A stretch of DNA of 64,000 nt, taken from assembly GCA_011321815.1 (NCBI GenBank), contig DROS01000096.1, forward strand, positions 10,750 through 74,749. Direction: 5' to 3'. The translations under genes and the position numbers were made by a program. This document shows positions 38,365 through 46,402 of the stretch, one piece after another (position 1 is the first letter of the stretch; the number at the start of each line of letters is the position of its first letter). The DNA comes from Gammaproteobacteria bacterium (GTDB taxonomy: Bacteria; Pseudomonadota; Gammaproteobacteria; SZUA-152). The notes beneath the pieces were generated by a model, which worked only from the letters and a program-made list of their open reading frames with translations, was not told the DNA's origin and did not search any database.

Positions 38365-38469
38365 GTGTTAATAGTTGTTTTGACAGTCCAACCGGTGTTT
38401 GTTTTTTTATCCAATGCCGCAGGGAAAAACAGGAAAATTTTCCCGATAAACGGATATCAGTGAATTCAC

Positions 38470-40926
38470 TTAACCCTTATACGGCCCGGGCCAGCCTTCC
38501 AGCTCAAAGAGCGGCATGACGGCTCGCTCGGGCTGTTCCAGTTCCAGCGCCAACAATGCAGGACCGAGAGCCCCCCAGTAGAGATTCAAACTGTGTTCAT
38601 CCCAGGCAAAAGATTCGACAGTGGAATTAAAGGCGAAGCGTGCCAGTTGTTGGGCCCGGGCTAACCATACTTGATCGCCGGTGTGACGATAGACATGCAG
38701 CAAGGCAAAGGCACGCCCACTGAGGCCACAGCAAAGACGTGGGTGGCGGTCGGCATGCTCCCAGGCAAACCAAGCCGTCTGGATAGCCAGTTCCAGGTAA
38801 CGGGGACTCTGGATCAGTTCGTGAGCCAGACACCACAAATAAAGATACCCAGCACTGCCACTGCACCAGCCAGGGGCATGAGCAGGTGTCTCATTTTGTT
38901 GCCCCATATGCTGAACAGTACCAACCCATGATATACCTCGCCCGTGGAGAACCGCCTTTTCAGCCAGTTGCTCAAGATGTTTTACAAGCGTAACGGAAGG
39001 GGGTGTTTGCAGCAGTTTGTGCGCCAGTAGTTGAGCATAGAGCATACCGGCCCAACCGTGTGCGATACCCAGATGGGGCGTGGTTTGATCATTGCCGACG
39101 TCACCCAGCCCGGCAATGCGTGTGGCGGTATGCCGGGACGTTTCCCGCAGGAACTGTTCCAATGGTTTGACGGACAAGCGTGACGACCAACGCAATACAT
39201 CCAATAATATTGCAGCGCCTACTATCGGGCCGCTATGGCCGAAGGCAAATTCGTTTTGGCTTTTTCCGGCTTGTGCAGCACTCAGAAACTCTTCCACCTG
39301 TTGCGCGGTTGAGGCCATATCACCTCGTGCGTGACTGATCAAAGCGTGCACGCAGTGCAGACCACACCGCCCATGGTGAAGAGAAACATGACGGTAGTTG
39401 ATCTTTTTGTCGCTTACGGCGGGCAGCTCAAACCCCTGACTATCGTCAATTTGTGCAAGTGCCTGGCGGGACCAGAGGTCGGCACCCACAATCAGTTGCG
39501 GAGAATTGCGTATCTGTGCGGCACGGTAGAGAAACCATGCCAACCCGGCTGCACCAGACTGAATGGACAGCGTTGGTGCGGTAGTGAACAGTTCCGCTAA
39601 TGGGCGTGGAGCATCCACCGTGCGTTCCAGAATTGCATCGACCAGGGACAGCATCTTTGCGGCTGGGCGCACCTCGTCAACCTGATTGCGTTGTGTGGGG
39701 GGCTGTGCACGGCGAAAAGCCTCGCTGAACAGTTTAAGCGAAGGAAAGCGGGCCTGCGCCTTTTTGGCCATAGCGCGCTGTAACACGGATTCTATGTCAG
39801 GCCAGCTTTCAAACCCGTGTCGGGCAAAGGGTAAAGGGGGACTTTCAACCACTTCTTTGTACAGTATCCCCGCCTCGGGTACCCCGGCGATGGGGTAGGC
39901 GCCACAGATCAGATAATATACCAATGCGGCCACAGCATACTGTTCACCCGCGTAGCTTGCGGGTGGCGGCGGTTCTCCGTTCAGTAATGCACTTGCCAAT
40001 TCCGGTTCCATAAACCAGGCTAAACCGGCGCGCCGATTATGATCCGTTGCTGTCCCGCTTGTTAGCAAACGCGATAACCCGAAATCGAGCAATGTAATAT
40101 TGTTGTCGGCATCCACCAACAGGTTTTTGGGATGCACATCGGCATGGATGACACCGTGACCATGAAGTTGTGCGTAGGCATCGAGCAGACGGCAACAAAG
40201 CTGGTGTATCCGGGTGCGCCAGGAGGTTGAGGTGGCGAGACGGTGTTCCCAGAAAGGCAGGTTGATTGGCACGCCGGGACACCAGGAGGTAACCAGAAAA
40301 GGGCGTTCACGATATTGCCCCTGTTCGGCCAATTGCGGACTGCCCACCCCATGCAAATGTGTCAGAATAGCAGCCTCATGTTCCAGTGCCCGCGATACTG
40401 ATGAAGCAGTATCGGGACGTGCGATTTTTAACGCAAACAATTGCCCGTTTTTCCCCTGCACTTGATAGACTTCCACGTCCTGTAGCACTTGAATCAAGCG
40501 GCATACCTCATACCCGGCAAGCATTTGCCCATTGGCAAATGACGCATGAATACTTTCCGTTATGGGCGAATCGGCGGGAACCAGAAACTGGGCATTGGAA
40601 AAACGTATTAACGCAGGGAAGACCTGCGCCAGTGTCTCTTCCGGAACAAGGTTATGTTGACGGCTGTAACGTGCAATGGCTTCGGCAAGGGGGGACGGCG
40701 TGCGAAACGTCTGTAGCAAGATGGCAGTGTCTTTATCGACAATGCGCGAAAAAGAGCGCATGCCGGGGCGTGTAACGGCATAATCGTCATCGTTGCAGTC
40801 GAGCATCGCCCGAACATGTTCCGCCAGTTCCTGAACGGGAAACAACAAGACATCAGGCGGTAAAACATACGGTTTCTGCAAAAGTTTGCGGCGTGCTTCG
40901 TCAATCATTTGTGATCCCGTTTTCAT
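38470..40926 (-). CDS. Ser/Thr protein kinase fused to a LanC-like (lanthionine synthetase C-like) cyclase domain, with an unassigned roughly 135-aa N-terminal domain
   Basis: The kinase motifs are 'FALKIARPD' (catalytic Lys), 'HGVIHADVHPKNLLV' (catalytic loop) and 'LLDFGLSR' (DFG). The C-terminal LanC motifs are 'GAAGLAWFLY', 'GIAHGWAGM' and 'WCSGSAGY…CCGLSGRAF'. Confidence 0.8.
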   Translation of the reverse strand: MKTGSQMIDEARRKLLQKPYVLPPDVLLFPVQELAEHVRAMLDCNDDDYAVTRPGMRSFSRIVDKDTAILLQTFRTPSPLAEAIARYSRQHNLVPEETLAQVFPALIRFSNAQFLVPADSPITESIHASFANGQMLAGYEVCRLIQVLQDVEVYQVQGKNGQLFALKIARPDTASSVSRALEHEAAILTHLHGVGSPQLAEQGQYRERPFLVTSWCPGVPINLPFWEHRLATSTSWRTRIHQLCCRLLDAYAQLHGHGVIHADVHPKNLLVDADNNITLLDFGLSRLLTSGTATDHNRRAGLAWFMEPELASALLNGEPPPPASYAGEQYAVAALVYYLICGAYPIAGVPEAGILYKEVVESPPLPFARHGFESWPDIESVLQRAMAKKAQARFPSLKLFSEAFRRAQPPTQRNQVDEVRPAAKMLSLVDAILERTVDAPRPLAELFTTAPTLSIQSGAAGLAWFLYRAAQIRNSPQLIVGADLWSRQALAQIDDSQGFELPAVSDKKINYRHVSLHHGRCGLHCVHALISHARGDMASTAQQVEEFLSAAQAGKSQNEFAFGHSGPIVGAAILLDVLRWSSRLSVKPLEQFLRETSRHTATRIAGLGDVGNDQTTPHLGIAHGWAGMLYAQLLAHKLLQTPPSVTLVKHLEQLAEKAVLHGRGISWVGTVQHMGQQNETPAHAPGWCSGSAGYLYLWCLAHELIQSPRYLELAIQTAWFAWEHADRHPRLCCGLSGRAFALLHVYRHTGDQVWLARAQQLARFAFNSTVESFAWDEHSLNLYWGALGPALLALELEQPERAVMPLFELEGWPGPYKG

Positions 40927-42097
40927 GCCACAACGCAGTGGTGGGCATCCAGTTTTCTACCTGTACGCCATCCAATGCCAGACGCAACAAGGCGAAATCC
41001 CATGGCGCCGGATGGTCATCACTGTCTGCTATTGTTGATTTGGCGCGTAACAGGCTGCGTGCCAGGTGGTTGGTTATCCATAAACGCCAGCTTTCCACAT
41101 CACGCCAGCCAGGAATCAGCTCGCTGTGCGGAGGGTCTATTCCCCAGGACAACAAACCATCGGTGTCCAGTGCTGCTGTAAATGGTACGCCATGGGATGG
41201 GCAGTCCTGCAATATCTTTTTCAGGTGTTTCGCCACCCGCGCCAGGGTGCGGTAATTTTCAAAATACGCCACCAGTTTGTCGGGCCGTAATATTCCAAAC
41301 AGATCCTGTCCCAGCTTGAATGACGGCACACCCATTTCAACAAAACAGCGCGCAATTTTGGGTAACACCTCGCTCAATACCCCGGGGGTCGGACTAATGT
41401 AGAGTTTGCAAGTCAAAGGTTCACTACGATCAAATGCCCCCTGCTGATGGTGCCATGCCAGCCACCCTGGCACGTTATGAAACACAAAGTGCTCATCAAG
41501 CAAACGATGTACTGCGCCACCAGGCTGAAGCCCCAAATGATTCTGTATCGCACGTTGGTCCGAAAGACGGTGAGCCCATGCAGGTGTTACTGGCATGCGG
41601 TGATAGCGATAGAGCCAGCGTGATAACGCCTTAGGGTCATCTATGGGAAGAGTCTGAGCCGCCTGCAAGGCGGCGTGTGAACAGGTTGTCAAAACATCGG
41701 CAGGTTCAGGAATGTTGGGTGTGGCGGCGAGAAGTGCTTTGCAGGCTGCCGGACCACTGAAAAAACGGCCCTCTTCTTCGATTTCCAGAATACCGTCCAG
41801 CACCATGCCCGCAATCCCTGCCTTATTCTGCAGGATGTCTGCGGGTAACGTCGCAGGCTGTCCGAGGCGTTGCAATAACGCAGCACTATTATTATCAACC
41901 GCCAGAATACCCAACGCGGGCTCCTGGTGTGGGACTAACACACCGTACTGACCGGCATCCGCAGCGAGTTCACGAAAGGGGGCCGCAGACACTGGAGGCA
42001 GCTGTTCATAGCCAACTAACCGGAATGCCGGGCTGGCGCGAAACAGGCGGCCTTCCAGGGGTTGAAGCTGAAGCCAGCTATGTTCGCCTGTTAACAT
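40901..42097 (-). CDS. Hypothetical 398-aa protein, middle gene of the kinase-LanC operon
   Basis: This ORF is translationally coupled on both sides: it overlaps the downstream kinase-LanC gene by 26 nt and the upstream 168-aa gene by 7 nt. I can assign no motif by eye. Confidence 0.5.
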   Translation of the reverse strand: MLTGEHSWLQLQPLEGRLFRASPAFRLVGYEQLPPVSAAPFRELAADAGQYGVLVPHQEPALGILAVDNNSAALLQRLGQPATLPADILQNKAGIAGMVLDGILEIEEEGRFFSGPAACKALLAATPNIPEPADVLTTCSHAALQAAQTLPIDDPKALSRWLYRYHRMPVTPAWAHRLSDQRAIQNHLGLQPGGAVHRLLDEHFVFHNVPGWLAWHHQQGAFDRSEPLTCKLYISPTPGVLSEVLPKIARCFVEMGVPSFKLGQDLFGILRPDKLVAYFENYRTLARVAKHLKKILQDCPSHGVPFTAALDTDGLLSWGIDPPHSELIPGWRDVESWRLWITNHLARSLLRAKSTIADSDDHPAPWDFALLRLALDGVQVENWMPTTALWHENGITND

Positions 42098-42597
42098 TCA
42101 CCTTTGGAGGAACGCAATTCTTCCAGTGCCCCTTCAAACATGGGTATCAGTTCCTGTGCATCTGTCTTTGCACGGCGTGCGGCAACCGCTTCGACGCCTT
42201 CAATTCTCGCCACGGCTTCGTTGAGCAGGCCTTTGACATATACAAGGTCATCCAATTGAAAGCCGCCTATGCTGGAGGCAAAGGGAGAAATGTTTTCGTT
42301 AGCCTCACAGGTCGCCATATCCTGGGAACAAAGTGCCAGCAATCCGCCGCCGACTGCCGCGCGCCCGATGTCTGTTGCCACGCGCTCAAGCTGGGCCGGT
42401 TCAAGACGGTTGATCTCTCCTTTATAACTATCCAGAAATTGCAGTTTATAAACATCCCGTGCCACGGCAATCACTGGTGTAAGCGGTGTGGGAAACTCCG
42501 AGGTGTCTGAATCAGGTCCTGGATAAGCGACACTTCCTCCACCCGTTTTGAGTGGCATAAGATTGACCATTAAATCTTTCACTTTATATGTACGCAT
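42091..42597 (-). CDS. Hypothetical 168-aa protein, first gene of the kinase-LanC operon (candidate substrate or accessory protein)
   Basis: It has a good Shine-Dalgarno sequence (GGAGAAAAGCC-ATG). A Ser/Thr/Pro-rich patch 'PGPDSDTSEFPTPLTP' is present and the C-terminus ends '…LRSSKGEC'. Confidence 0.45.
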   Translation of the reverse strand: MRTYKVKDLMVNLMPLKTGGGSVAYPGPDSDTSEFPTPLTPVIAVARDVYKLQFLDSYKGEINRLEPAQLERVATDIGRAAVGGGLLALCSQDMATCEANENISPFASSIGGFQLDDLVYVKGLLNEAVARIEGVEAVAARRAKTDAQELIPMFEGALEELRSSKGEC

Positions 42598-43342
42598 GGC
42601 TTTTCTCCTTTGAGAGACGAAATACGCACCGGCTCCTTGATATTGGATGGTGGTAAAAGTTAATGACTAAATCATTCGTTACATTACCAGTAGCGACGCT
42701 GCCTTCCTTCCAGATTGACGCTTTACGAATGGCAAGCGGAGAGACGGAAAAAAACGGAGCCCTCACTGCAACTATAGACTATATATACCCGTAGCGATTG
42801 AGATTCAGGCCTGATTGCACGCCCTGTTTCCGCCATGGCCGCGTTGTTGTCCTTGTCATAGAATAACGATTACGTGTCATGTCGCCTCGCCATGCAGAAA
42901 ATATGACGCACACTTAAACCGAAACCCCAAACGCCACGAGTATATGGCGCTGTGTCATCAATGTGATAATGACCGGAAATTTCATAAATGTGATTTTTAG
43001 GGTGTAAAAAAACGTGACCGTCCGGTTAAGGAAATCCGGCGATTCTGATGAAATCACGCCTAACAACAAACGTCGTGCCTTGATGACATCAATGCCTGTG
43101 CCAGCAGCAGGTCTTACCCAACCGGGGTGTTCTTTATGTTTAAAAAATGCCAAATTTAAAGGAACAACCTGGGGCGCTTGTCCGTCTACACGGCGTAAGA
43201 GTCTCGGTAGTTACCTCATCAGATAAGAATTTGAGTACCGTGTCGCAAATCAATCGACTGTCAGTCAATATGCCGGGCGCAGGGACGATGATATTTCCCG
43301 GAAGCTGTGTGCTCCCCCGTTTAGTAAGCAGAGGAATGTGTA

Positions 43343-46300
43343 ATGCCATGGATTAAGCCCGTTTTCCCTTCCACTATATGCTGTCCCCGTCGTTTTGTAT
43401 CGGCGTTTTTCTTTTTCGCGGTGTTACTGATTTCAAACCATGCCTTCGCTGTAATTGGTGCGGCGCCAAACACCACCATTCAGAATCTCCCCGCCAACAC
43501 CTGGTACGAGGTTCCGAACAGCGAGATGCGTCAAGTGGAAGCCAAGGGCGCGGATTATCCCGGCATCTGGGGTAACCACCCGGATGATCCCACGCCAAGG
43601 AAGAGCAACTTTCCAAGTGGTCAGGGGGTTTTTCTGTGGAGTGGTGCAGTGTTTGACGACTATCGCAATCGCCTGGTGTTATGGGGTGGTGGGCACAACT
43701 CATACTACGGTAACGAGCTTTATGCCTTTGATCTCACCTCCTTAAACTGGGAACGGGTTACCAACCCCTCGCCGCCCACTTATGATGATATTTGTGTTGC
43801 TGTTTTGTCTGATGGCAACCCCAATAGCCGCCACACTTATTACAATCTGGCCTATATCCCCACCACAGACAAATTTTTTTCCACGCCGGCAGGGACCACA
43901 TCCTGCGAGGCTTCCGGATTGGATTTCAACACCTGGAGCTTTGATTTCGATAGTAAAGACTGGCTCAATCTTGCCCCCGCCACCGAACTTAACGGTAACG
44001 GCAAGGCAGTACAGCCCCCGGGTTGGGCGCCTACGGCGGCGGCTTACAATCCACTGGATAACAAGGTGTACTCTGTTGGCCCCGAGGGGCTGTTTGCCTA
44101 CGATGTGGTTGCCAATCGTTGGGATAAACTGAATTCCTCCGGATTGGGGGGAGACCGCGGTGTGGTGGTGGACGAGAAGCGTGAGCTGCTAGTCGTGGTG
44201 GGGCGTGGTGAGGTGGTGGTCTACGATTTGGCCAATCAGAATTATACCCCCCAATTCTGGGATACCGTGGGTGATGAGGACTATAACCTTAATAATAATT
44301 TCCGCCCGGGTGTGAATTACGATCCGGTGGCGGACCGCATCGTAGTGTGGGATGGGGGAGCCGTGCGTGCGCTCAATATGGATACCCGTCGCTGGGATGA
44401 TCTTGCGGTGGCGCCCCAGGTGCGCCATTTTACGGGCACTTACGGTCGCTTTCGCTATAGCCGACGGGAAAACGCCTATGTGTTGGTCAATGATGCGACA
44501 GAGAATGTACTGATCTACAAGCTGGCAGACCCTGCTGCCTTGCGGGTGGTTCTGGACCCTGTTGATATTGCCGTGGATCAGGGGCAAACCGCAACATTCA
44601 GTGTGTTCGCAATTGGTGATAGTGAGCTTAGCTATCAGTGGCGCAAAAACGGAGGAGTCATTGACGGTGCCACACAGGCAAGTTACACACTCACGGCCTC
44701 CGATATGGCTGACAATGATGCGGAGTTTGATGTCGAAATCACCAATAATGGCAGCAGCCTGATCAGCGCTTCCGCCAGGCTTACGATTGTTCAGGACATT
44801 GATGCCCCGACAGTGGTTTCTGTACTGCCCCTTGGGGCTGACACTGTCCAGGTGGTGTTCAGCGAGCCGGTGGAAACAGCGTCGGCACAAAATGCCAGTC
44901 GTTACAGCCTCGCGCCTTCCGTCACAGTCAATAGTGCTGTGCTGGCGGCCAACACTCGGGTGGTGTTGCTTGATGTCAGTGGCCTCAGTGAGGGCACTGA
45001 ATACACCCTGATCATTGACGACGGTATCAGCGACCGCGCTATTGTGCCCAACGTCATGACAGAAATGACCAATGTCAATTTTGTCTATCGCGCCAATGAA
45101 GGGTTCGAGGGTGGTGATGCCGCAGGTTTTGAGCCCCAAACGCCATCGCGCTGGACGGTGGTACAGGACGGTGGTGATTACGCCTACAGTCTTAATACTT
45201 CAAATTTTGACAGCCCTGGCAATGGCTTGTTGGGTGAATACAGTCTGTTGCCGGGGATCTATGGTGACGTGGTGTTTAGCGTTAATGCCCGGCTGGGTGA
45301 CGAGGTGGCCAGTAATAATTTCGCTGATATGGCGCTGTTGTTTGGTTATCAGGACGCCAATAACTATTACTATCTGCTTCTTAATAATGCAATGTCTGCC
45401 ACGCAATTGTTCAAAGTGGAATCGGGTCGCCGTAGCGAACTGGCCACGGCCACGACGGACTGGTTGAATGACAACCTTTATCACGCCATTGACATTGTGC
45501 GTAGTGGTGATCAAATCCGGGTCACTTTTGATGGCAACATGCTGCTGAGCGCCACGGATGCCACGTTTGCGATGGGTCGTCTGGGCGTTGGCAGCTTCAA
45601 TGATTCCGCCTTTTTTGATGACGTTCGCGTACGTGCGGTACCTGCTGGTGGTGCCACCAATAGCGCGCCCACGGCTGCCAGTGCCAGTATTACAACCAAT
45701 GAAAACACACCGAGCGGAGGTGTATCCGCGCAGGTAACAGACCCGGATGATGGCGCTGATCATGTTATCAGCATTGTTTTACAGCCTTCGAACGGTACTG
45801 CACAGGTGATTAACAACAAGCTGGTTTACACGCCAGGCACAGGATTTGTCGGCAATGACAGCTTCCAGTTCAGCGCCACGGACTCGGGCGGGCTGTCTGT
45901 CACCGGTATTGCCAGCGTTACGGTGTTGGCCGCGGGGGGTGGAAACAATGCACCCACCGCCGCCAGTGCCAGCATCACTACCTACGAAGATACATCGAGC
46001 GAAGGTGTGTCCGCGCAGGTAACAGACCCGGATGATGGCGCCGATCATGTTATCAGCATTGTTTTACAGCCTTCGAACGGCACTGCACAGGTGATTAACA
46101 ACAAGCTGGTTTACACGCCAGATAGCGGTTTTGTCGGTGATGACAACTTCCAGTTCAGTGCCACGGATTCGGGCGGGCTGTCTGTCACCGGTACCGCCAG
46201 CGTCACAGTGTTGGCAGAAGAGCCGTCTGACAATGGCGGCAGTTCCACGGTGGGTGGTGGCAGCGGTGGTGGCGGTGGCAGTTTTGGCGTATTGCTGCTA

Positions 46301-46402
46301 TTGGCCCTGTTGTTCATGAAATACAGTTTTGTCTTTCTTTCTGTTCCGGCACATCGTCAAAATAATCTTGATGCTGTACTGAGGGTTGATCAGTTGTCCT
46401 GA
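43343..46402 (+). CDS. Large secreted multi-domain surface protein (Kelch/beta-propeller-like region, Ig-like domains, concanavalin/LamG-like domain, two tandem cadherin/VCBS-like repeats, Gly-rich linker and a C-terminal hydrophobic anchor)
   Basis: The 1019-aa product has a signal peptide (…FFFAVLLISNHAFAV) and an Ig-like segment '…FSVFAIGDSELSYQWRKNGGVIDGATQASYTLTASD…'. Two 95-aa repeats are present. The C-terminus is 'GGGSGGGGGSFGVLLLLALLFMKY…'. Confidence 0.75.
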   Translation: MPWIKPVFPSTICCPRRFVSAFFFFAVLLISNHAFAVIGAAPNTTIQNLPANTWYEVPNSEMRQVEAKGADYPGIWGNHPDDPTPRKSNFPSGQGVFLWSGAVFDDYRNRLVLWGGGHNSYYGNELYAFDLTSLNWERVTNPSPPTYDDICVAVLSDGNPNSRHTYYNLAYIPTTDKFFSTPAGTTSCEASGLDFNTWSFDFDSKDWLNLAPATELNGNGKAVQPPGWAPTAAAYNPLDNKVYSVGPEGLFAYDVVANRWDKLNSSGLGGDRGVVVDEKRELLVVVGRGEVVVYDLANQNYTPQFWDTVGDEDYNLNNNFRPGVNYDPVADRIVVWDGGAVRALNMDTRRWDDLAVAPQVRHFTGTYGRFRYSRRENAYVLVNDATENVLIYKLADPAALRVVLDPVDIAVDQGQTATFSVFAIGDSELSYQWRKNGGVIDGATQASYTLTASDMADNDAEFDVEITNNGSSLISASARLTIVQDIDAPTVVSVLPLGADTVQVVFSEPVETASAQNASRYSLAPSVTVNSAVLAANTRVVLLDVSGLSEGTEYTLIIDDGISDRAIVPNVMTEMTNVNFVYRANEGFEGGDAAGFEPQTPSRWTVVQDGGDYAYSLNTSNFDSPGNGLLGEYSLLPGIYGDVVFSVNARLGDEVASNNFADMALLFGYQDANNYYYLLLNNAMSATQLFKVESGRRSELATATTDWLNDNLYHAIDIVRSGDQIRVTFDGNMLLSATDATFAMGRLGVGSFNDSAFFDDVRVRAVPAGGATNSAPTAASASITTNENTPSGGVSAQVTDPDDGADHVISIVLQPSNGTAQVINNKLVYTPGTGFVGNDSFQFSATDSGGLSVTGIASVTVLAAGGGNNAPTAASASITTYEDTSSEGVSAQVTDPDDGADHVISIVLQPSNGTAQVINNKLVYTPDSGFVGDDNFQFSATDSGGLSVTGTASVTVLAEEPSDNGGSSTVGGGSGGGGGSFGVLLLLALLFMKYSFVFLSVPAHRQNNLDAVLRVDQLS
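45656..46225 (+). repeat. Two tandem 285-bp near-identical repeats inside the surface-protein gene
   Basis: The anchor 'gccagtgccag' occurs at 45677 and at 45962 (period 285 bp). The encoded repeats '…APTAASASITT…VSAQVTDPDDGADHVISIVLQPSNGTAQVINNKLVYTP…FQFSATDSGGLSVTG…' are more than 90% identical. Confidence 0.8.

Follow-up and report, generated by a model that had tools for sequence, protein, structure and literature searches.

A candidate new lanthipeptide cassette combining an RRE-kinase-LanC protein, a stand-alone HopA1/LanY-like lyase and a small precursor-like protein

The window considered here is a stretch of 64,000 nucleotides from a gammaproteobacterial genome (GenBank assembly GCA_011321815.1, contig DROS01000096.1, positions 10,750 to 74,749 of the forward strand). 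Its subject is a cassette of three genes on the minus strand, which in their order encode a small candidate substrate protein, a stand-alone lyase, and a protein in which a predicted recognition element of pathways for peptides that are made on ribosomes and modified after translation (RiPPs), the RiPP recognition element (RRE), is joined to a Ser/Thr kinase and a LanC-type cyclase domain. An earlier note on this DNA had described the last of these as an N-terminal domain, a kinase and a LanC domain in a system that lacked a lyase. The cassette is presented as a candidate for a new class of lanthipeptide.

Genes and features of the cassette

The genes, their domains and the nearby signals are listed in Table 1. 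The length of 818 aa for the RRE-kinase-LanC protein is counted from the first ATG, and a start at the in-frame ATG of codon 7 would shorten it to 812 aa; the NCBI call is the longer form (HHI94745.1, MAG TPA Gammaproteobacteria bacterium) and the ENA assemblies call the shorter. Between the start of this open reading frame (ORF) and the stop codon of the lyase gene there is an overlap of 26 nt, or of 8 nt should translation begin at Met7, and the stop codon of the 168-aa gene overlaps the lyase start in the sequence ATGTTAA. A Shine-Dalgarno-like AGGAG lies 8 nt before the ATG of the 168-aa gene. Matches of the sigma-70-like type are, by consensus scan, no commoner in the window than in shuffled sequence.

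Table 1. Positions in the window of the cassette genes, their domains and nearby signals
Feature	Position	Strand	Remarks
Candidate precursor/substrate protein, 168 aa	42091..42597	-	HHI94747.1, annotated 'hypothetical protein'
Leader-like N-terminal motif MRTYKVKDLMVNL, residues 1-13	42559..42597	-	predicted recognition motif
Predicted core ALCSQDMATCEANENISPFASS, residues 88-109	42271..42336	-	Cys90, Ser91, Thr96, Cys97, Ser104, Ser108, Ser109
C-terminal 'follower' region, residues ~115-165	42103..42255	-	aligns with the family tail; helical by composition
Phospho-Ser/Thr lyase, HopA1/LanY-like, 398 aa	40901..42097	-	HHI94746.1, annotated 'hypothetical protein'
Lyase catalytic half, residues ~200-398	40904..41500	-	invariant Lys231, Tyr233, Lys261, Arg271, Asp273, Tyr278
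RRE-kinase-LanC protein, 818 aa	38470..40926	-	HHI94745.1, annotated 'hypothetical protein'
N-terminal RRE, PqqD-like winged helix, residues ~16-135	40522..40881	-	predicted structure
Ser/Thr protein-kinase domain, residues ~139-420	39667..40512	-	Pfam Pkinase 153-361, E 2e-17
LanC-type cyclase domain, residues 453-808	38503..39570	-	Pfam LANC_like, E 9e-30
Terminator-like hairpin, then T-run	38430..38445	-	25 nt past the stop codon; consensus scan only
Weak sigma-70-like promoter match	42939..42967	-	upstream of the cassette; 9/12 consensus positions; low confidence

A homologue search, in which scoring was limited to the 8000 candidates with the most shared words, returned 342 homologues of the 818-aa protein at E<=1e-3. 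The 120 homologues that were listed are 710-855 aa long, and all but 3 of them cover at least 95% of the query. Given the number of homologues, their near-full coverage and the invariant catalytic residues described below, the 818-aa ORF is not a chance reading frame.

Domains and catalytic residues of the two enzymes

The three-part architecture proposed for the 818-aa protein is borne out by Pfam, which recognises Pkinase and LANC_like domains, and by the modelled fold of the N-terminal domain. All six motifs quoted in the earlier note are found, three in the kinase part (ALKIARPD at residues 165-172, HADVHPKN at 261-268 and DFGLSR at 281-286) and three in the LanC part (GIAHGWAG at 620-627, WCSGSAGY at 687-694 and CCGLSGRAF at 732-740). 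Residue conservation was read from 47 aligned homologues, which are 31-55% identical to the window protein. In all 47, the kinase retains the ATP-binding Lys167, Glu184 of the alphaC helix, His261, Asp263 and Asn268 of the catalytic loop, and Asp281 of the DFG motif, such that the protein has the central Ser/Thr kinase with catalytic residues that characterises class IV enzymes. The best match of the kinase domain among PDB sequences is PknB, and a Pfam match to APH is weak and local, confined to residues 253-286.

The LANC_like match spans profile positions 5-349 of 350, and is thus a full-length domain in which His623, Cys688, Cys732 and Cys733 are invariant in all 47 homologues. When the LanC part was compared by sequence with all PDB chains, LanCL2 and LanCL1 scored best; nearly all other matches are eukaryotic LanCL1/LanCL2 chains and a plant LanC-like protein, with a bacterial LanC-like chain reached only at E 0.78. 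In LanCL1, zinc is bound by Cys276, Cys322 and His323, and His219 is the acid (PMC9934072). Cys688 (WCSG) aligns with Cys276 (WCHG), the pair Cys732-Cys733 (CCG) with Cys322-His323 (CHG), and His623 with the catalytic His219. The zinc-ligand motifs pointed out earlier therefore hold as to position, being invariant and conserved with respect to LanCL1 and LanCL2, but a Cys takes the place of His as the third ligand. Judged from the aligned residues, the C-terminal domain appears to have the Cys-Cys-His/Cys ligands of a class IV LanC. The Cys3 'CCG' set occurs in ProcM-type LanM enzymes.

Pfam gives no match within residues 1-138 of the 818-aa protein. The structural model of the N-terminal domain, a three-stranded sheet followed by three helices as in known leader-binding RREs, matches MibB (9.0), MccB (8.8), NisB (8.5) and TglHI (8.2), and further MadB (8.0), TbtB (7.5), the PbtF RRE (7.5), LynD (7.1) and SuiB (6.0); structure comparison of the model found no remnant of a lyase. 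The suggestion that the first ~135 residues are a substrate-recognition domain is supported by this modelled RRE/PqqD-like fold, and the domain can be identified as an RRE for which leader binding is the predicted role. An RRE in this position is noteworthy, given that class III and IV synthetases are described as recognising leaders without one (PMC8341899). As a separate observation, a weak precomputed Pfam match to PF19974 (TCAD9) is present in homologues P0006, P0007, P0010, P0056, P0061 and P0075 and at loci L082 and L085, and was not seen in the window protein.

The 398-aa protein encoded by the adjoining gene has no match of its own in Pfam or NCBIfam. A profile of its family found nothing meaningful among PDB sequences, and the fold emerged from structure comparison only. 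Among 45 aligned family members, the Pfam HopA1 model matches 4 and RamC_N, the class III lyase domain, matches 2; one of these members, P0126, scores 25.9 bits where the gathering score is 22.7. The six residues listed for the catalytic half in Table 1 are invariant in 45 of 45. The spacing Lys261-Arg271-Tyr278 (+10, +7) is identical to that of Lys219-Arg229-Tyr236 in CaoY, and Lys231 occupies the position of CaoY Arg187 and SpvC Lys104. Both Lys219 and Arg187 of CaoY are essential by mutagenesis (PMC9486802).

Since the adjoining gene encodes a lyase fold with conserved catalytic residues, the system is split rather than lyase-less. The premise of the earlier note is not supported on this point. 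Its author had named, as a finding that would overturn it, a recognisable lyase domain encoded by the N-terminal ~135 aa together with neighbouring sequence; the neighbouring gene does encode a recognisable phospho-Ser/Thr lyase fold, but the N-terminal ~135 aa themselves are not a lyase. A minor similarity was seen between the two enzymes, in that a profile-profile comparison of the lyase N-terminal region (residues 1-199, 41501-42097, minus strand) with the RRE region of the kinase-LanC protein (40522-40881, minus strand) aligned lyase residues 15-90 with RRE residues 16-86 (E 2e-4, probability 46%), with a similar order of secondary structure. No RRE is among the proteins that match the model of the whole lyase in structure.

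It is highly improbable that the 818-aa protein is an ordinary trifunctional synthetase, a class IV LanL or class III LanKC, with a mis-called or truncated N-terminus. Its best NCBIfam match is indeed LanL (NF038150, E 4e-48), followed by LanKC. However, the LanL score is 164.5 bits against an equivalog cutoff of 650, and the alignment begins at profile position 191, past the lyase part. Residues 1-138, which are left unaligned to the LanL profile, are modelled as an RRE rather than as the OspF-like lyase that is fused at the N-terminus of class IV enzymes, and the architecture of ~800 aa is common, with near-full coverage, to the homologues listed. The presence of invariant zinc ligands puts class III out, given that LanKC cyclase domains are without them (PMC7268733), and the score against NF038151 is 98.5 bits with a cutoff of 575. 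More generally, the June 2026 release of NCBIfam has no model that matches either the lyase or the precursor families, and its family cutoffs all lie far above the scores of the kinase-LanC protein.

Precursor-like proteins and distribution of the cassette

The 168-aa protein has no match in Pfam, NCBIfam or PADLOC, and none of the small proteins of the wider precursor-like family matches NCBIfam. It joins that family of small ORFs at E 1.5e-12 in an iterative hidden Markov model (HMM) search, for which the HMM was built and searched among the ORFs of the retrieved loci. Of 82 loci, 72 have a member of the family upstream of the lyase gene, and some of these have two or more.

The small ORFs share a conserved N-terminal motif, a hypervariable middle and a conserved tail. 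The family-wide N-terminal motif is M-x-F-K-V-K-D-L-M-I-N-V, and in an alignment of the nine sequences of the subclade of the window protein V6, D8, L9, M10 and N12 are invariant (V-x-D-L-M-x-N). The tail has the form L-x-x-L-K-x-Q-L-x-x-A-L, often extended by P-Q-T-x-x-E-V-E-E-L-E-x-K-L; it is Cys-free and 49% E/K/Q/R/L, a composition from which alone its helical character is taken. Trimming to the motif was possible for 43 sequences, which have a median of 8 Cys each, and every Cys lies in the middle segment (14% Cys, 20% Ser plus Thr and 13.5% Gly), the flanks being Cys-free. The predicted core of the window protein sits where the wider family has these Cys/Ser/Thr-rich cores, and 7 of the 9 subclade homologues keep the pattern C-[ST]-x-[DE]-M-[AP]-T-C with I-S-P after it. 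By sequence, the layout resembles that of a multi-ring lanthipeptide precursor, except for the internal placement of the core and the long, apparently helical tail.

Repetitive cores are common in the family, and include CTGTT units, CTGHQTHPQE repeated eight times, CTPSPP four times, CYASGGG six times and runs of C-[ST]-x-C. Cores built of tandem units were seen in ORFs upstream of the lyase gene at L033, L042, L044, L065, L063, L067, L008, L005, L002 and L046. Such sequences suggest that each molecule would carry many equivalent rings.

When one genome per species was scanned, 310 stretches proved to encode relatives of the kinase-LanC protein, the majority from Acidobacteriota and others from Chloroflexota, Actinomycetota, Gemmatimonadota, Planctomycetota, Nitrospirota, Myxococcota, Pseudomonadota and Bacteroidota; one archaeal bin is also among them. 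Of 82 loci, 80 have a lyase-family gene directly upstream in the same orientation, and the other two loci end at a contig edge. An exhaustive profile search of clusters at 50% identity assigned 1,594 of them to the lyase family with E<=1e-3 and 1,126 with E<=1e-30, and the best 150 clusters are nearly all stand-alone proteins of ~325-510 aa. The kinase-LanC/lyase family is therefore widespread and not rare. The archaeal-bin cassette (L081, contig CAWIYT010000081.1, in a bin labelled Nitrososphaerales archaeon) could reflect horizontal transfer or a binning error, and its small ORF seemingly consists of two leader-plus-tail units in tandem.

All-against-all clustering of the ORFs within 8 kb on either side of 86 loci found no further conserved family, and no protease, exporter or immunity gene. 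The lack of a conserved protease or exporter would fit a bacterial counterpart of the LanCL proteins, in which the kinase and lyase make dehydroamino acids on a protein and the LanC domain adds glutathione (GSH) or another small thiol intermolecularly, with no rings formed. The PDB matches of the LanC domain, nearly all of them to eukaryotic LanCL1/LanCL2 and the plant LanC-like protein, also favour such a system, as do the Cys-poor substrates of the window type and the lack of paired Cys in two homologues. However, in a pairwise alignment with LanCL1 of moderate reliability, five of the seven GSH contacts are not conserved, one of them being conservatively replaced: His274 corresponds to Gly686, His323 to Cys, Arg364 to Ala774, Glu374 to Trp784 and, conservatively, Asp367 to Glu777. 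Lys317 aligns with Arg by hand count, and Arg4 falls outside the alignment. The set of GSH-binding residues conserved in LanCL proteins is thus lacking in the 818-aa protein, and a GSH transferase of the LanCL type is disfavoured because the equivalents of His274, Arg364, Glu374 and Asp367 differ. Moreover, a dedicated substrate gene of a Cys-rich family is co-encoded; the family-wide small proteins have, at the median, 8 Cys, all of them in the core, which fits intramolecular cyclisation, and RRE domains are a hallmark of RiPP pathways. The comparison with LanCL-like glutathione adductases made in the earlier note is therefore weak, and this explanation is judged unlikely, although it could apply to the Cys-poor subclade of the window protein. 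Taken as a whole, the interpretation in that note stands in part, with the architecture, the ligand positions and the recognition domain upheld, the lyase-less premise not upheld, and the comparison with LanCL-like adductases weak.

Large Ser/Thr kinases of 870-1400 aa, fused to PD40/WD40 propellers, stand beside the cassette in ~26-30 of the 86 loci, mostly in Thermoanaerobaculia and Acidobacteriota, and some have two kinase domains (examples at L024:2387-6544, L061:11216-14884, L060:3183-5900 and L007:3341-5950). Extra small ORFs occur just after the PD40-kinase genes and apart from the lyase/kinase-LanC pair (L040:14296-14613, L040:18275-18589, L061:14974-15240, L079:13994-14275, L031:14045-14290 and L024:14899-15216). 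They have a leader of the form M-x-F-x-S-R-D-L-M and a tail of the form L-A-L-L-R-x-Q-L, with only ~2 Cys in cores made of CGQAT-type repeats.

The proximity of PD40-propeller kinases in ~30% of related loci, together with matches of the PADLOC kinase models PD-T4-6, mad6 and MkoA, would be consistent with a signalling or anti-phage defence kinase for which the LanC-like and RRE domains serve as sensors and the small protein as a regulator. The PADLOC matches nevertheless cover nothing but the generic kinase domain, and neither the lyase nor the small protein has any. The invariant zinc and acid residues of LanC, the invariant lyase residues and the hypervariable Cys/Thr cores better fit peptide modification, and no defence-island context was seen in the loci inspected. 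A role in signalling or defence is accordingly considered quite improbable. The anti-phage lanthipeptides known as 'lanthiphage' are class I LanB/LanC systems and are unrelated.

Proposed pathway, relation to known classes and surroundings

The three genes most probably form a translationally coupled RiPP cassette for a split lanthionine synthetase, made up of the RRE-kinase-LanC protein and the LanY-like lyase, that acts on the small protein. This proposal is built on which folds and domains are present, and on the findings that the catalytic residues are invariant, that synteny is strict and that the small ORFs have a precursor-like architecture. From these we infer the chemistry, which motif each domain binds, how the rings are arranged, and what becomes of the product and what it does. 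In a first step, the RRE of the 818-aa protein would dock the 168-aa protein through one of its conserved flanks, for which the N-terminal motif KVKDLM(I/V)N is proposed. The kinase domain would then phosphorylate Ser and Thr residues of the core (ALCSQDMATCE...ISPFASS in the window protein), and the 398-aa lyase would eliminate the phosphate by beta-elimination to leave dehydroalanine or dehydrobutyrine. Finally, the LanC domain, with its Cys3 zinc site and His623 as the acid, would add the thiolates of core Cys residues to give lanthionine or methyllanthionine rings.

Several points weigh against this proposal. Its support is wholly computational, and leader binding by the RRE is a predicted step. 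The 168-aa protein of the window is itself a divergent, longer and Cys-poor member of its family, with 3 Cys and an E value of 1.5e-12 to the family HMM, and the paired Cys motif is absent in 2 of the 9 subclade homologues. The missing conserved protease or exporter near the cassette is unusual for a secreted lanthipeptide. To our knowledge, there is no precedent for a long helical C-terminal tail in lanthipeptide precursors.

A bolder view, held only tentatively and on balance doubtful, is that the products are protein-sized 'lanthiproteins' of ~80-250 aa rather than small secreted lantibiotics. The N-terminal motif and the helical, possibly coiled-coil, C-terminal tail would then be kept in the product, and would display a thioether-knotted and often repetitive centre with a structural or signalling role inside the cell or at its surface. 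This view would fit the lack of a conserved protease or exporter, the conservation of the tail between phyla, and the recurrence of extra precursor-like genes beside the PD40-propeller kinases. If it is correct, then the cassette would represent a new lanthipeptide class, an RRE-dependent system with kinase, lyase and zinc LanC split.

Lanthipeptide classes are sorted by the organisation of dehydration and cyclisation, and the cassette mixes traits that define different classes: the kinase and zinc LanC are of class IV type, the lyase of class V type and the RRE of class I type, to which the precursors add an unusual layout of leader, core and tail. It is closest to the class IV LanL enzymes (VenL, SgbL), in which a Pkinase-type kinase likewise precedes a LanC domain that has zinc ligands, and which are the best-scoring curated family. 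In LanL, however, the OspF-like lyase is fused and the third zinc ligand is His, whereas here an RRE is at the N-terminus, the HopA1-like lyase is encoded on its own, Cys stands in the place of that His, and the precursors have a mid-placed core followed by a long tail that is helical by composition. The class III LanKC enzymes (CurKC, ThurKC, SalKC) differ in being single trifunctional polypeptides.

Class V systems (LxmKY, CaoKY and the thioamitide TvaCD) share the stand-alone HopA1-like lyase, LanY, which is represented here by the 398-aa protein. In contrast, their kinase LanK is separate and APH-like (PF01636), whereas the kinase of the cassette is of Pkinase type and fused to the RRE and LanC domains; and they are without LanC, with cyclisation by LanX or spontaneous, whereas a canonical zinc LanC domain is recognised here. 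The cassette lyase also has Lys231 where LanY has Arg, an extra N-terminal region of ~190 residues, and a family in which the few members matched by the HopA1 model do not include the window copy. Class VI LanKCb of Streptococcus is likewise a kinase-containing synthetase with a non-canonical lyase arrangement, but was rejected as a relative on the basis of review descriptions, which give a truncated lyase and cyclase in one polypeptide, very short substrates and a restriction to streptococci; the cassette has a full-length LanC, an RRE and a separate lyase.

Outside the kinase-dependent classes, the N-terminal domain shares the PqqD-like RRE fold for leader binding with class I LanB and other RRE-dependent enzymes (NisB, MibB, TbiB1, PqqD), but here the RRE is fused to a kinase-LanC enzyme. 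LanCL1 and LanCL2 are the closest solved LanC-type sequences, with the catalytic His and both Cys ligands aligned, and they act on dehydroamino acids that arise at phosphorylated sites. They differ in that they are stand-alone, use GSH and have His as the third ligand, and in that most of their GSH-binding residues are changed in the 818-aa protein. In short, the cassette joins a phosphorylation-elimination dehydratase of class III/IV/V type to a zinc cyclase of class I/II/IV type, and fails membership of classes III, IV, V and VI.

No published description of an RRE-kinase-LanC protein with a HopA1-like lyase was found, in a search that reached few subscription journals, so that earlier publication is possible. 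Rule-based genome miners that tell classes III and IV apart by LanC alone could assign the kinase-LanC protein to class IV, and could miss the separate lyase and the long precursors. If the proposed pathway is correct, then the cassette would offer a simple three-gene expression system and an evolutionary link between the fused kinase/lyase dehydratases of classes III and IV and the split ones of class V.

Most of the window is filled by an XrtA/PEP-CTERM exopolysaccharide locus (22080-63807, plus strand), which is interrupted at 38470-46402 by the cassette, on the opposite strand, and by the gene for a 1019-aa protein. The locus encodes PrsT, a chain-length determinant, a Tyr autokinase, an outer-membrane protein, a UDP-GlcNAc 2-epimerase, a deacetylase, a FemAB-like protein, a decarboxylase, the stp1/stp2 glycosyltransferases, exosortase A and an amidotransferase. 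The GC content is 0.53-0.56 in the cassette and ~0.50 in the flanks. Linkage of the cassette to the XrtA/PEP-CTERM locus is considered incidental, given that other genomes carry the cassette in unrelated contexts. The 1019-aa protein (43343-46402, plus strand) has Kelch-like, Big_5, Big_9, cadherin-like and tandem-95 repeats, a Gly-rich stretch and a hydrophobic C-terminus, and could be a sorted surface protein of the PEP-CTERM type.

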